Sequence record: OR525702.1
Source: Escherichia phage vB-Eco-KMB23
Length of the DNA: 64,000 nucleotides
Reading direction: 5' to 3' (one strand)
The notes under the pieces are model-generated. The model ran no database searches, was not told the origin of the DNA, and was given only the letters and a program-made list of their open reading frames with translations. The first letter of the stretch is position 1, and each line of letters opens with the position of its first letter. The translations under genes were made by a program, and so were the position numbers. Shown here piece by piece: positions 8,899-39,720 of the stretch.

Positions 8899-9111
8899 CT
8901 ATTCCTTACTAAGAGCAGCATTCAGCTTGTTAGTAATTTTATCCAGACGCTTATTGAACTCACTAGAAGATAAGCCTTTTTCTGGAGAAATTAAGCTAAT
9001 CACGAAAAATATAGCAATAAAAGGAATAAGAAAAATAGCACCAACTGCCATAAACAAAAAGAACGTTACAGTTGTAAGAAAATCAGCTAAACCTTTACGA
9101 AATTTATACAT
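8899..9111 (-). CDS. Small membrane protein, 70 aa
   Basis: Hydrophobic segment FLFMAVGAIFLIPFIAIFFVISLI. Confidence 0.5.
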   Translation of the reverse strand: MYKFRKGLADFLTTVTFFLFMAVGAIFLIPFIAIFFVISLISPEKGLSSSEFNKRLDKITNKLNAALSKE

Positions 9112-17318: not shown

Positions 17319-18221
17319 TTAAGATTTAAGTAAATCAACAATTTTAATTAATTTTTCACGCTCAGATTTAGCTTTACTACTCAATCCAGATAGTCTGAAA
17401 ATTTCATCGTCATACTGTTGAATAGAAATATTCAGCTCTTCAATTTGCTTATTAAAATAATCAATTTGTTCAGAATGTTTTTCGTTACTACGAACTGGTA
17501 CAGGTTTTGTAGGTAATTTAGATGAACTGGATTCATCCGGGCGATAAATTAAAATACAACTTGAACCAATCGGGCATTTTGCACCAGACGAATATTCTAA
17601 TGTTCCGGCTTCTTTTAAAACTTCAAAAGCTAAACAGAGATGATGCCCCATATTGACATAATCTGTAGAGTGAGCTCTGACGTAATAATCATCTCCACGA
17701 GTGCTAAATTTAAAGCATTTAAGGTCTTCTGTATTATTAGTTTTAAAAATCATTTGTTTATCTAGACCTTTAGCCAATCGAGCACCTAATGCTAATAATC
17801 GTCGTTGATTTTCCCACAAATCCGCAATCATTTGATCGAATGACAATTTCGGCATTAGTCGACCGTAAAGATCATAGCCTTTATTATAATTACGAAGAAT
17901 TTCACTCGCATTAATACGAGACAACGCTCCAATTTTATTAAGGGCTTTCATAATACGATTAGATAAACTCATTCCAGACTCGTTTGTTCGCTGTAAATGT
18001 TTTTCTAATCCAAATCCAATATCAACTTTAAACTTATCTAAAATTTCTGCATGAACATCTCTGTCAATAACATTCAAATCCAAAGTTGGGTTAAATCTAT
18101 GAAAAAATTTATCTGGCTCTCCACGACGAAGTACAGTCCATTCATTTAATTTTTTATTAACTAAAGATTTAATTACTGCATTGACATTATTAATTACTAC
18201 TGACATATTTTTCTCACTCAA
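17319..18221 (-). CDS. Hypothetical protein with C-terminal coiled coil, 300 aa
   Basis: ORF track; C-terminal heptad region NKQIEELNISIQQYDDEIFRLSGLSSKAKSEREKLIKIVDLLKS. Confidence 0.6.
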   Translation of the reverse strand: MSEKNMSVVINNVNAVIKSLVNKKLNEWTVLRRGEPDKFFHRFNPTLDLNVIDRDVHAEILDKFKVDIGFGLEKHLQRTNESGMSLSNRIMKALNKIGALSRINASEILRNYNKGYDLYGRLMPKLSFDQMIADLWENQRRLLALGARLAKGLDKQMIFKTNNTEDLKCFKFSTRGDDYYVRAHSTDYVNMGHHLCLAFEVLKEAGTLEYSSGAKCPIGSSCILIYRPDESSSSKLPTKPVPVRSNEKHSEQIDYFNKQIEELNISIQQYDDEIFRLSGLSSKAKSEREKLIKIVDLLKS

Positions 18222-18622
18222 TTTTCAATTTTACTAAATACACAGAATATGATGGAAAAGACTATATAAGCACCGCACACAGATTGAACTAATACCATTC
18301 CAAAGAACCAAACAATATTATCAAACAGTGTCTGTTTTACGTCGAAAGGACGTAAACTTACAGTAATATTATCACCTTTTTCTATTGAAGAATACATCTC
18401 TGGGGAAATATATTCACTAAATCTATAACCGTCTTTAAGTTCATATACGGCAATAAACGATAAACTAGACCCTTTTCCTTGTGTTCCTGTAATGGTATTA
18501 ACTACAGTAACATCATAATCTTTATAATGCATATAATCATTAATTGCGTAATAACCGTATGCAACTACTACACATAAACAACATATCAATAAATTCAATC
18601 TTTTAATTATCAACTGTTTCAT
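18218..18622 (-). CDS. Membrane protein, 134 aa
   Basis: N- and C-terminal hydrophobic helices (LICCLCVVVAYGYYAI; FGMVLVQSVCGAYIVFSIIFCVF). Confidence 0.55.
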   Translation of the reverse strand: MKQLIIKRLNLLICCLCVVVAYGYYAINDYMHYKDYDVTVVNTITGTQGKGSSLSFIAVYELKDGYRFSEYISPEMYSSIEKGDNITVSLRPFDVKQTLFDNIVWFFGMVLVQSVCGAYIVFSIIFCVFSKIEN

Positions 18623-26612: not shown

Positions 26613-26830
26613 GTCACCTTTAAGCAGTATTCTTCTACATGCTGTTTACGACCTTTCTTATCAATAAAGGTATATTCAACGAATGTTCCAATGTAGTCTT
26701 TATCTACATCATGTGGACTATTAATTGGACATTTAGTACGGCAAATGCGTTCCCATTGACGAATAATTACTGCCTTATTCTTTGGGTCATACGGATGTGG
26801 ATAATGTATATTCATAATAACGGTTCCCAA
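26603..26830 (-). CDS. Hypothetical protein, 75 aa
   Basis: ORF track. Confidence 0.45.
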   Translation of the reverse strand: MGTVIMNIHYPHPYDPKNKAVIIRQWERICRTKCPINSPHDVDKDYIGTFVEYTFIDKKGRKQHVEEYCLKVTWL

Positions 26831-27279
26831 TCAACAATCACAATTTCTAATTTAGAGGAATATGTATCTAAAATCCCCTCAATAATATCCCAGTTCCCTT
26901 TACCCATGCCTGCACCAATCCTAGGCATATAGATTGTAGGTTTAATCAGTTTATTTTCACCAAACTCATTTAATTCTAACATACAATTCATTAAAGCGGA
27001 ATACTCAAAATTTGGCCCCGGTTGAAATTGAGTATAAAGATTGAAGCAGTAAGCTTTATGAGTCCTAAAGTATTTTTCATAGACTGAGTAAGAACCGAGT
27101 TTAGTTACATCGCCCCATTCTGTCTGTAATTTATCAGCTTCCAAAATTTTAGGGAAAGCTTTGGTTAATTGACCCGCTACGCCTGAACCCATAGTATGAA
27201 AACAATTGCATCCATGCGCAATATTTTTACCTTCAGCGAAAAGGGCGACAATATCGCCCTTGATATATTTTACAATCAT
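26812..27279 (-). CDS. TARG1/OARD1-like macrodomain protein (putative ADP-ribose glycohydrolase)
   Basis: KGDIVALFAEGKNIAHGCNCFHTMGSGVAGQL and IYMPRIGAGMGKGNWDII parallel human OARD1 motifs as recalled (AHCISEDCRMGAGIA; MPRIGCGLD). Confidence 0.7.
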   Translation of the reverse strand: MIVKYIKGDIVALFAEGKNIAHGCNCFHTMGSGVAGQLTKAFPKILEADKLQTEWGDVTKLGSYSVYEKYFRTHKAYCFNLYTQFQPGPNFEYSALMNCMLELNEFGENKLIKPTIYMPRIGAGMGKGNWDIIEGILDTYSSKLEIVIVDWEPLL

Positions 27280-27617
27280 CTAGTACTCAATCCTCGATTA
27301 TAAGAATCTACCAAACGGTCAACCATTGAATGACAAGCGGCTTTATCTTTCTCCTCCGCAACTGAACATTCTAAGGTATTCCACTTTTTAGCATATCGTT
27401 TTAACAATGTATCATTTTTGTATCTGCTTGATTTATCTCTTTCTCCGTCTTTATATGCATATATTAATTTCTGCGCAAATTCAGCTTGGCATGCTTTATT
27501 TTTCCCGCAATAATCCGCTGCAGTACGGTTTACATACTCTCTAATTTCAGTATATGATGTATCTGCTAACGCAGAAAATGAAATTAATCCTATACATAAA
27601 ACCAAAATTTTAGTCAT
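27276..27617 (-). CDS. Secreted/periplasmic small Cys-containing protein, 113 aa
   Basis: N-terminal signal peptide MTKILVLCIGLISFSALA; four Cys in mature part. Confidence 0.55.
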   Translation of the reverse strand: MTKILVLCIGLISFSALADTSYTEIREYVNRTAADYCGKNKACQAEFAQKLIYAYKDGERDKSSRYKNDTLLKRYAKKWNTLECSVAEEKDKAACHSMVDRLVDSYNRGLSTR

Positions 27618-28155
27618 TTACTATTTCCAAAAGTTTATTATTTTTAAGGTAATTAGCCTTTTCTAGGACTTCAGAAGCATATTTAGAACCTGCTTTAACA
27701 TTCCATCCCGAATTATAAGAGGATATTGCTTTTCTTATATCGCCCTTATGTATATTTAACCAATAAGAAAGTTCAATGTACGCCCAGGAAGCTGAATTGG
27801 ATCGTTTATTCAACATTCTTTTTATTTCAGCATCGGTCATATTATAACCAAGTTCCTTAACTCTTGCTCGCATAGTAGGCAAATAATTTTGGAACATTCC
27901 GTAGGCGTGATGCTTTGGTTTAGATTTTAAATTAACTCCGCCAGAGCTTTCTTGCCATAAAATGGCTGCCATTATATGACCTAATCCGCTCTTGTGGATA
28001 TTTTTGTGTGTTTTATATTTTCCATCCTTAGAAAATTGTTCCCCGAATTGATACGCGTAACGCATGTTATCGAGTTGGACATTACTGAAAGTATGCTCGG
28101 AGCTATGTGCCATCATTGAAATGGCCAATAGACCAGCGAGTAGTGCTTTTCTCAT
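27610..28155 (-). CDS. Periplasmic lytic transglycosylase-like (SLT/GH23-like) protein
   Basis: Signal peptide MRKALLAGLLAISMMAHS; SLT motifs WQESSGG (catalytic ES), GMFQ, SYNSGW. Confidence 0.65.
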   Translation of the reverse strand: MRKALLAGLLAISMMAHSSEHTFSNVQLDNMRYAYQFGEQFSKDGKYKTHKNIHKSGLGHIMAAILWQESSGGVNLKSKPKHHAYGMFQNYLPTMRARVKELGYNMTDAEIKRMLNKRSNSASWAYIELSYWLNIHKGDIRKAISSYNSGWNVKAGSKYASEVLEKANYLKNNKLLEIVND

Positions 28156-28162
28156 GCTTACC

Positions 28163-28624
28163 TCATTGAGTTTTAATTACTGCTTTAGAAGCCTTTCCTG
28201 GTAAACGACGACTGTTGATAATTGCCATCCTGCATTGAAGCGACGGGTCTTTGAACTTCGCATTAGGTTTACAAACTGTAAATCCAAGCCAAAGATTTCC
28301 ATCTGTGATTTCTAAACGTCCAGGACGATATTCAACCCCATCAATAAAATCCTCGTCAATGTCAGGACGCGGAGGCATACTCAGGAATTCATTAACTTCT
28401 AAAACATGGTCTTTTATTTTATGGAATAATTCAAAAACGTATGTCTCATCAATCTCCCGTTGAATTGCGCGATCAAGAAGATGCTGAGAATATTTTAGAT
28501 GAAACGATGAGACTCCTGCTGCTTTTGATGCCTCACGAATCTCATTGTTAATTTGACGAAACTCCGACTCAAAGTGACGACGAAGCTTATTTCGACGGAT
28601 AAAAACTTCTGTATTGATAGTCAT
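28163..28624 (-). CDS. regB: Sequence-specific endoribonuclease RegB
   Basis: 153 aa as in T4 RegB; own early promoter and AAGAGGAG RBS upstream. Confidence 0.8.
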   Translation of the reverse strand: MTINTEVFIRRNKLRRHFESEFRQINNEIREASKAAGVSSFHLKYSQHLLDRAIQREIDETYVFELFHKIKDHVLEVNEFLSMPPRPDIDEDFIDGVEYRPGRLEITDGNLWLGFTVCKPNAKFKDPSLQCRMAIINSRRLPGKASKAVIKTQ

Positions 28625-28651: not shown

Positions 28652-28681
28652 ATTATACCACAGTCAAGAGGAAAAGTAAAC
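28652..28681 (-). promoter_or_regulatory. T4-type early promoter upstream of regB
   Basis: Minus strand GTTTAC, 18-nt spacer, TATAAT. Confidence 0.55.
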
Positions 28682-28683
28682 AA

Positions 28684-29004
28684 TTATTCTTTAAATCTAA
28701 TCAATTTATTCATAGACTTTGAAACTTCTGCACGAACCTCATGTAGATTTTTGAGCTGTTCAAGACGCTGCGTATAGTAAGCAATTTCATCTTCTTCGAG
28801 ACAGTCCTGTGAATCTTCTTTAAGATAACGTGCATAGTCCTGAAAAGCGTTACGAACTACTTCCTGAAAATCATCAAGACTTTGAATTTTCTTAGGAGCA
28901 GCAGATACACGACGAGGGGCAGTATAATACTCATAACCAAACCCTGCGCTTAATTGAGCCATTAGTATTTTTCCTCTGGTTGGAACACTGCACGACAAGC
29001 CCAC
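28684..29004 (-). CDS. Hypothetical protein, 106 aa
   Basis: ORF track. Confidence 0.5.
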
Positions 29005-29264
29005 ATACTGGCTTCTTTGAGTTTCGTTTTAGCAATAGTTAACTGATCGAGGCTTTCAGCATAATTCTTCGCGAGTTCATCATCTTCACAGCTATCAAAT
29101 GCTTCCCAAAATTCATCGTATAAAGCATCAAAGATAAGTCCTAAACGAACTTCAGCGTCTTTGATAGCATTCACTTTACTGATTTTCTCTTCGGTATGCG
29201 GCTTATAACCCTTAATATCTTCAATCATATTTGACTTCCTCACCAGTACATAAATCATATTCAA
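28962..29264 (-). CDS. Hypothetical acidic protein, 100 aa
   Basis: ORF track. Confidence 0.5.
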
Positions 29265-39534: not shown

Positions 39535-39720
39535 TTATTCACCTTTAGAAATTTTATCCATAACGATAGCAATTAAACCAATTAAAAATGCTACTACAAG
39601 TGAAAACGCATTTTCTGCTGTAGTTAATAATCCGCATATAAATCCAACAAACATTGAAAAACTAAAAGCAGAAGCAGAAATTGCAATAGCAACATTTCGA
39701 ATTAATTCACAACGTTTCAT
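39535..39720 (-). CDS. Small membrane protein, 61 aa
   Basis: Two hydrophobic helices; GAGGAG RBS and early promoter upstream. Confidence 0.5.
   Translation of the reverse strand: MKRCELIRNVAIAISASAFSFSMFVGFICGLLTTAENAFSLVVAFLIGLIAIVMDKISKGE

Follow-up and report, generated by a model that had tools for sequence, protein, structure and literature searches.

The vs.1-vs gene pair of T4-type phages: a lytic transglycosylase-like protein and a four-cysteine partner candidate, both predicted to be exported

The 64,000-nucleotide stretch of DNA from Escherichia phage vB-Eco-KMB23 analysed here (sequence record OR525702.1; the window, hereafter) carries on its minus strand two overlapping early genes, vs.1 and vs, which are the subject of this work. 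An earlier note, made from the letters alone, had pointed to two adjacent open reading frames (ORFs) of 181 and 113 codons and had taken their products for exported proteins. Both frames are present (27610-28155 and 27276-27617), and the structural reading of the note was sound; what it missed is that they are the vs.1 and vs genes of bacteriophage T4, which were already annotated. We favour, with more confidence than doubt, the view that both proteins are exported early in infection, that Vs.1 is an active GH23-type enzyme working through Glu69, that Vs is its disulfide-stabilised periplasmic partner, and that the pair tunes the cell wall.

27610..28155, minus strand: vs.1, encoding a 181-residue precursor, a predicted periplasmic single-domain GH23/SLT-type lytic-transglycosylase-like enzyme
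27276..27617, minus strand: vs, encoding a 113-residue precursor, predicted to be exported, with four helices and four cysteines; annotated "valyl-tRNA synthetase modifier"
27610..27617, minus strand: overlap of the vs.1 stop and the vs start, 8 nucleotides, AAATGACTAA, read from the sequence

The 181-residue product is 100% identical to T4 ORF 61.4 (Vs.1), and the 113-residue product has 97% identity to T4 Vs and matches the Vs of many T4 relatives at 100%. In a megablast search with the surrounding 1.9 kb, 651 phage records matched over 80% or more of that length; among the matching records about 500 reach at least 95% identity, nearly all of them from T4-type Tequatrovirus, the type to which the window itself belongs. 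Because of this identity with T4, and because both T4 proteins have been detected by mass spectrometry in infected cells, the two ORFs are real genes, the catalogued vs.1 and vs, and not chance reading frames. Vs belongs to phrog_1256 (expectation value, E, 5e-40), and its homologues carry the precomputed assignment PF26829 ("ValRS_modifier"); with 97 to 100% identity the 113-residue ORF is a plain member of this T4 Vs family. In NCBIfam, a family was found for neither Vs.1 nor Vs. The 8-nucleotide start-stop overlap makes translational coupling of the two genes likely, and the vs stop in turn overlaps the start of the next gene, tk.4, by 4 nucleotides. The predicted mature form of Vs.1 has about 163 residues (18.8 kDa, isoelectric point 9.65) and that of Vs about 95 residues (11.0 kDa, against 12.9 kDa for the precursor).

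Vs.1 as a GH23-type protein

27694..27975, minus strand: SLT domain of Vs.1 (residues 61-154), Pfam match

Vs.1 matches the Pfam SLT family with 25.1 bits, above the gathering cut-off of 21.3 (E 1.4e-5). When its 32 homologues were scanned singly, 29 matched the same family at E <=0.01, the best at 1.3e-7. Family-1 lytic transglycosylases are recognised by four motifs: ES; GLMQ; AYNxG; and Y...V. In an alignment of 32 Vs.1 sequences, which share 41-82% identity, the invariant positions include E69, G86, F88, Q89, Y147, N148, G150, Y159 and V163, and S70 is conserved in at least 90%. Motifs II to IV read G86-M-F-Q89, S146-Y-N-S-G150 and Y159-A-S-E-V163. The three motifs that the earlier note had quoted, ES (E69-S70), GMFQ (86-89) and SYNSGW (146-151), are all there, on invariant or near-invariant columns. 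A second acidic residue, E128, is invariant as well.

The catalytic candidate, Glu69, is encoded by the GAA codon at 27949-27951. The glutamate of the "RQES" motif of Slt70 and E64 of EmtA/MltE are catalytic residues. The hhalign program places "ILWQES" of Vs.1 over "IARQES" of Slt70 and "IIAIES" (E64) of EmtA/MltE, and "AYGMFQ" over "ASGLMQ", in the expected register; the statistics of these alignments are weak because one side is a single sequence. An AlphaFold2 model of Vs.1 has a predicted local distance difference test score (pLDDT) of 89 and a predicted template-modelling score (pTM) of 0.83. In a Foldseek search with this model, the top 29 matches in the PDB were all GH23 proteins, with a probability of 1.0 for the best; the best matches were MltD, a GH23 chitinase, goose lysozyme, Slt, Cj0843, phi6 P5 and T7 gp16. 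The SLT region also shows weak similarity to the "lytic tail protein" and "endolysin" families of PHROG. The SLT-like character claimed for the 181-residue protein thus holds up: the Pfam cut-off is passed, the catalytic glutamate stands in register with those of Slt70 and MltE, and the structural matches are to GH23. From its motifs and its model, Vs.1 is most likely a GH23-type protein that cleaves glycan strands and uses Glu69 as its acid/base catalyst. The similarity itself was already known. Nolan et al. (2006), citing the 2003 review of the T4 genome, described it in each of the six vs.1 orthologues known at the time, and some GenBank records label Vs.1 "transglycosylase SLT domain-containing protein".

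The E. coli family-1 lytic transglycosylases Slt70 and MltE/EmtA (PF01464, GH23) have in common with Vs.1 the ES, GLMQ-like, AYNxG-like and Y...V motifs. They also have the lysozyme-like helical fold and the periplasmic location, reached by way of an N-terminal export signal, that are predicted for Vs.1. The phage protein is nevertheless very divergent from them (about 15% identity in structural alignments). Unlike them, it is a single domain of about 163 residues with an additional helical segment near its N-terminus (25-58) that only the phage proteins conserve; it is also phage-encoded, early and, as far as sequence and model tell, soluble rather than a lipoprotein. The N-terminal domain of T7 gp16 and phi6 P5, both among the Foldseek matches, have a GH23-type fold like that of Vs.1; they are virion structural proteins that open the wall at entry or exit, whereas Vs.1 has a predicted signal peptide of its own, is produced early within the cell and is not known to be part of the virion.

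Predicted export signals and the Vs family

28102..28155, minus strand: signal-peptide-like segment of Vs.1, residues 1-18, MRK / ALLAGLLAISMMA / AHS, followed by SE; passes the heuristic
27564..27617, minus strand: signal-peptide-like segment of Vs, residues 1-18, MTK / ILVLCIGLISFSALA, followed by DTS; passes the heuristic

N-termini were scored with a heuristic of our own, not with SignalP, which considers the charge of the n-region, an uncharged hydrophobic core, the residues at -3 and -1, and position. Both proteins begin with a positive n-region followed by a hydrophobic core (13 residues in Vs.1, 15 in Vs) and small residues at -3 and -1. Among the 137 ORFs of the window that start with ATG and have at least 60 codons, only six pass: vs.1, vs, the antiholin gene rI and three whose 19-residue cores look like membrane anchors. 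RI serves as a positive control. Its signal peptide has been proven experimentally to be cleaved after Ala24, and this site is among those listed by the heuristic. The three anchor-like ORFs, all on the minus strand with a positive N-terminus (8899-9111, 18218-18622 and 39535-39720), belong to phrog_1930, phrog_2547 and phrog_1692, families whose function is not known. The cores of Vs.1 and Vs, judged by their length, are too short for stable membrane anchors, and from the distribution of charges the bulk of each protein is expected to be outside the cytoplasm.

This character is conserved. It is found in 32 of 32 Vs.1 homologues and in 36 of 38 Vs homologues, the two that fail looking like gene calls truncated at the N-terminus, so that the proposal of adjacent signal-peptide proteins is borne out by the heuristic. 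Pairwise identity over the first 18 residues is only 34-39%, against 58-60% over the rest (34% against 58% for Vs.1), and the hydrophobic character is kept; an N-terminus that evolves fast and yet retains its character is typical of signal peptides. T4 Vs has 115 residues instead of 113, and the sole length difference is a two-residue indel in the predicted c-region of the signal peptide: the residues before DTS are FSALA here and FSASASA in T4 (L003:3039-3386), and the AxA site is kept in both.

Vs has the four cysteines that the earlier note had counted, C37, C43, C84 and C95, and all are invariant among 38 homologues, where they probably form disulfides, to judge from the sequences. The AlphaFold2 model (pLDDT 86) consists of four helices, 20-37, 41-61, 68-84 and 89-110. 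The single sequence of Vs found only a chance match among PDB chains (E = 1). An exhaustive HMMER search for remote homologues among 1.84 billion representatives gave only eight clusters, all small and Vs-like, with no cellular relatives.

In a set of 31 loci with a detectable Vs, the order regB-vs.1-vs-tk.4 is kept in all 31. The association of the two genes was then followed in 51 Straboviridae loci, collected by means of the Vs.1 alignment. At many of the 51 loci tblastn with Vs is blank, although the next ORF after vs.1 is of the Vs type: 105-122 residues, signal-peptide-like, with exactly four cysteines after residue 20. With these included, 48 of the 51 loci have an intact Vs-type gene as the next one downstream of vs.1, and the other three have a truncated one. 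The 43 distinct downstream proteins all have signal-peptide character and share the spacing C-x5/6-C ... C-x8-10-C. When the distant forms are aligned with the Vs family by hhalign, the match extends over the full length with the four cysteines aligned (probability 99.0%, E 4.3e-18). By this measure they are true Vs homologues, and the family is wider than the databases recognise, a subfamily of 105-111 residues being missed by BLAST. In one lineage the signal-peptidase-I site of the AxA type is replaced by a lipobox, ALSGC (Cys16), and Vs is a predicted lipoprotein (L072:3049-3372, and the same gene in L073, L076 and L088). Exported proteins often make such a switch; in a cytoplasmic protein it would be difficult to account for. 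The conserved pairing argues for a periplasmic two-gene module, as far as can be read from the sequences.

The three truncated forms, each with an intact vs.1 upstream, retain two cysteines and amount to natural Vs knock-outs: an 85-residue form (L057:3041-3298, and L040, phage vB_EcoM_005) and a 65-residue form (L075:3049-3246). In many T4 relatives the Vs-type gene and tk.4 are separated by a third ORF whose product is predicted to be exported (L050:3366-3764, L069:3369-3800, L072:3372-3788, L086:3342-3764). It has 130-144 residues, a signal-peptide-like N-terminus, two conserved cysteines and a mature start "AWE", belongs to phrog_4957, and is absent from T4 and from the window. Aeromonas phage phiAS4 (L004) has regB-vs.1 and tk.4 without a Vs-type gene; just before its tk.4 lies an ORF of 146 residues (L004:3563-4003) with a lipobox-like SIYGC, which aligns poorly with the 130-144-residue family. 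Neither that family nor the phiAS4 ORF has a match in Pfam. In an Acinetobacter-type phage (L087:2501-4311), vs.1 and a Vs-type gene are followed by an exported ORF of 137 residues, another of 98 residues (phrog_6298) and a homologue of the RI antiholin (PF24205, E 2e-29). All five products are predicted to be periplasmic, and their genes follow one another with each stop overlapping the next start. T4 differs in having the tk block between the pair and rI.

Transcription and neighbouring genes

28652..28680, minus strand: promoter of the T4 early type, TTTACT-17-TATAAT with an upstream TG, just before regB; 10/12 match, extended -10
28163..28624, minus strand: regB, site-specific endoribonuclease (Pfam REGB_T4, E 1.4e-68); first gene of the unit
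26812..27279, minus strand: tk.4, macro domain (Pfam Macro, E 8e-6); downstream neighbour, outside the pair

The best minus-strand promoter match of the region is the site before regB, and no terminator-like site was found on this strand between it and vs, leaving regB, vs.1 and vs unseparated. This promoter is likely to be the start of a regB-vs.1-vs-tk.4 transcript. A dual RNA-seq and proteomics study of T4 placed the vs.1 and vs mRNAs in the early class; in the same study both proteins were detected by mass spectrometry (P13311, P13310), in the "middle" class of appearance. The early expression attributed to the two genes is thus confirmed, both by the promoter and by the published class of their messengers.

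Immediately after the vs stop, about 20 nucleotides into tk.4, the transcript could form a 9-bp GC-rich hairpin (27241-27261, minus strand; AAGGGCGAU-AUU-GUCGCCCUU, then UUCG). Record OL631480 marks the equivalent site as a rho-independent terminator; the fold is only slightly more stable than those of shuffled sequences (z -1.66) and the U-tract is short.

The earlier note had found a macrodomain gene an unusual neighbour for a protein of the SLT type. It is not: this is the ordinary, conserved synteny of T4 relatives, as the 31 Vs-bearing loci show. In T4, tk.4 has been identified as AdfM, an anti-DarTG2 factor with a cytoplasmic, DNA-directed role against DarT2 (HIDEN-SEQ preprint). A functional link between the pair and tk.4 was rejected because tk.4 acts independently of it, against DarT2. 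Upstream, homologues of vs.4 (about 28962-29228, minus strand) carry Pfam PF24729 (Acb2_Tad1_hairpin); counting tk.4/AdfM as well, anti-defence genes are abundant in the early block.

What the pair may do in infection

The roles that the earlier note had brought up for early periplasmic proteins (superinfection exclusion, lysis timing, remodelling of the wall) are speculative for this pair. In the scheme that we propose, vs.1 and vs would be transcribed early, within the tightly packed regB-vs.1-vs-tk.4 unit. A Sec-type signal peptide would take Vs.1 to the periplasm, where, once released, it would cleave the glycan strands of peptidoglycan with Glu69 as acid/base catalyst. Vs, translated from the overlapping start, would also be exported and adopt a four-helix fold with its four cysteines in disulfides. 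The two would constitute a conserved periplasmic module of the Straboviridae with the task of modifying or monitoring the wall of the infected cell, with Vs as the candidate partner of Vs.1, whether as a regulator, an inhibitor or an adaptor. Such a module would be dispensable in rich medium and would add to fitness.

Published phenotypes bear on this scheme. According to transposon-insertion data for T4, vs.1 and vs are both non-essential; mean insertion counts after growth in LB are 22.6 and 26.6 in the pair, compared to 179-652 in the neighbouring genes, that is, about ten-fold lower. When M9 glucose is compared to LB, vs is the most strongly depleted T4 gene (log2 fold change -2.19, adjusted p 0), and vs.1 shows a log2 fold change of -0.87 (p 0.0055, adjusted p 0.155). 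A clean vs knockout plaques poorly only on minimal medium. Full-length, N-terminally His-tagged Vs is insoluble when expressed in the cytoplasm.

Several points weigh against the scheme. The export prediction is based on our own heuristic and on conservation. The Foldseek E-values of Vs.1 are modest (5.6e-3 for the best, up to 0.5, with template-modelling scores of 0.4-0.54); searched as a single sequence against PDB chains, Vs.1 has no significant match, and its profile finds among PDB sequences only weak matches to goose lysozyme, on the C-terminal motif. In Vs, the cysteines lie near the ends of helices and should come together at one end of the bundle, where, going by the model, they may form a metal site. 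The more distant relatives of Vs.1, in phiAS4, Ackermannviridae and Felixounavirus, lack a neighbour of the Vs type; they keep a signal-peptide-like hydrophobic N-terminus and the ES motif, and Vs.1 can therefore stand alone. Adjacency is weak evidence of shared function, since T4-like genomes are broadly syntenic. The insertion profile of vs.1 fits a pathway shared with vs or, equally, simple polarity on vs, and the minimal-medium phenotype fits a role in aminoacylation at least as well as one in the envelope. Finally, the classical literature gives Vs a target in the cytoplasm, valyl-tRNA synthetase (ValRS), and includes in vivo effects on hosts whose ValRS is temperature-sensitive.

This last point leads to the strongest competitor. 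Vs is named after the phage factor that binds host ValRS, a cytoplasmic enzyme, and the export predicted from its sequence conflicts with such a target. Vs could be this cytoplasmic factor, tau, with an N-terminus that is no working export signal or that allows partial export, and Vs.1 could be an unrelated neighbour. The annotation stands in GenBank, PHROG and Pfam (PF26829), vs gives the strongest fitness effect specific to M9 glucose and its knockout plaques poorly only on minimal medium, and limitation for amino acids fits tRNA charging. A role in the cytoplasm is what the family name suggests; all the sequence features that we examined point instead to export: the signal-peptide character of 36 of the 38 close homologues and of all 43 distinct downstream proteins, the lipobox lineage, a 15-residue h-region too short for an anchor with flanking charges that predict the C-terminus to be outside, and four invariant cysteines. 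The insolubility of the full-length tagged protein in the cytoplasm also speaks against it. Moreover, the sequence record of 1986 calls the vs frame only "ORF 60.9", which implies that its tie to the genetic vs was made later; keyword searches of the literature, with the primary papers outside their reach, found nothing on how the two were equated. The tau factor has a reported size of about 10 kDa (literature of the 1970s), nearer to the 11.0 kDa of mature Vs than to the 12.9 kDa of the precursor. The agreement counts for the identity of Vs with tau, yet a size close to that of the processed protein would mean that it had gone through Sec. On balance we consider a cytoplasmic ValRS-binding Vs a serious possibility, and a doubtful one. 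With similar reserve, we tentatively suggest the converse, namely that vs is not, or not only, a ValRS modifier: it would encode the periplasmic, disulfide-bonded partner of Vs.1 in a wall module of the Straboviridae whose loss is costly especially in minimal medium, and the sixty-year-old ValRS phenotype would come from another ORF of the tk-e region or arise only after cell breakage.

The pair might instead serve lysis, Vs.1 being an accessory lysis enzyme (a second, exported endolysin) that Vs restrains as a periplasmic inhibitor until the end of the cycle. An exported protein of muralytic type does adjoin a small exported one of disulfide type, the pair stands in the Acinetobacter-phage loci within an unbroken run of exported ORFs that ends with an RI antiholin homologue, and the SLT region weakly resembles "lytic tail protein" and "endolysin" families. 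Enzyme-inhibitor devices have parallels in T4 Spackle, which restrains the gp5 lysozyme, and in bacterial inhibitors of the Ivy/MliC type. Spackle (gp61.3) and the RI antiholin are, as predicted for Vs, small, early, periplasmic proteins exported with cleavable signal peptides. Spackle, itself helical, inhibits an enzyme with a lysozyme fold. Vs has no sequence or fold relation that we could find to either of them, nor any similarity of sequence or fold to the inhibitor families Ivy, MliC/PliC, PliG and LprI, and an inhibitor role for it is hypothetical. The genes e, t and those of the spanins account for lysis by T4. Several phages bear Vs.1 without Vs, which they could not tolerate if Vs.1 were toxic and had to be neutralised by Vs; neither gene is essential; and the published T4 data report no lysis phenotype for vs.1 or vs. 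A role in lysis is therefore improbable.

It is no more probable that Vs.1 is a silent, non-lytic peptidoglycan binder or a hydrolytic, muramidase- or chitinase-like GH23 enzyme rather than a lytic transglycosylase, for although a GH23 chitinase and goose-type lysozymes are, like lytic transglycosylases, among its best structural matches, the PDB profile search picks goose lysozyme for the C-terminal motif and a second acidic residue, E128, is invariant, its four motifs follow the pattern of family-1 lytic transglycosylases and not that of goose lysozyme, and the invariant glutamate of the ES motif argues against a silent domain. A link to the HXS periplasmic defence system was considered and rejected, the paper in question being concerned with T7 gp15/gp16.

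The genes vs.1 and vs and the SLT similarity of Vs.1 were known; the function of the pair is unproven. To this we add a wider Vs family, the locking of Vs to Vs.1 across the Straboviridae, and the hallmarks of export in the Vs sequence. If Vs is truly periplasmic, a textbook assignment of a T4 gene needs to be revisited, and the minimal-medium phenotype of vs would point to a process in the cell envelope, not to tRNA charging.

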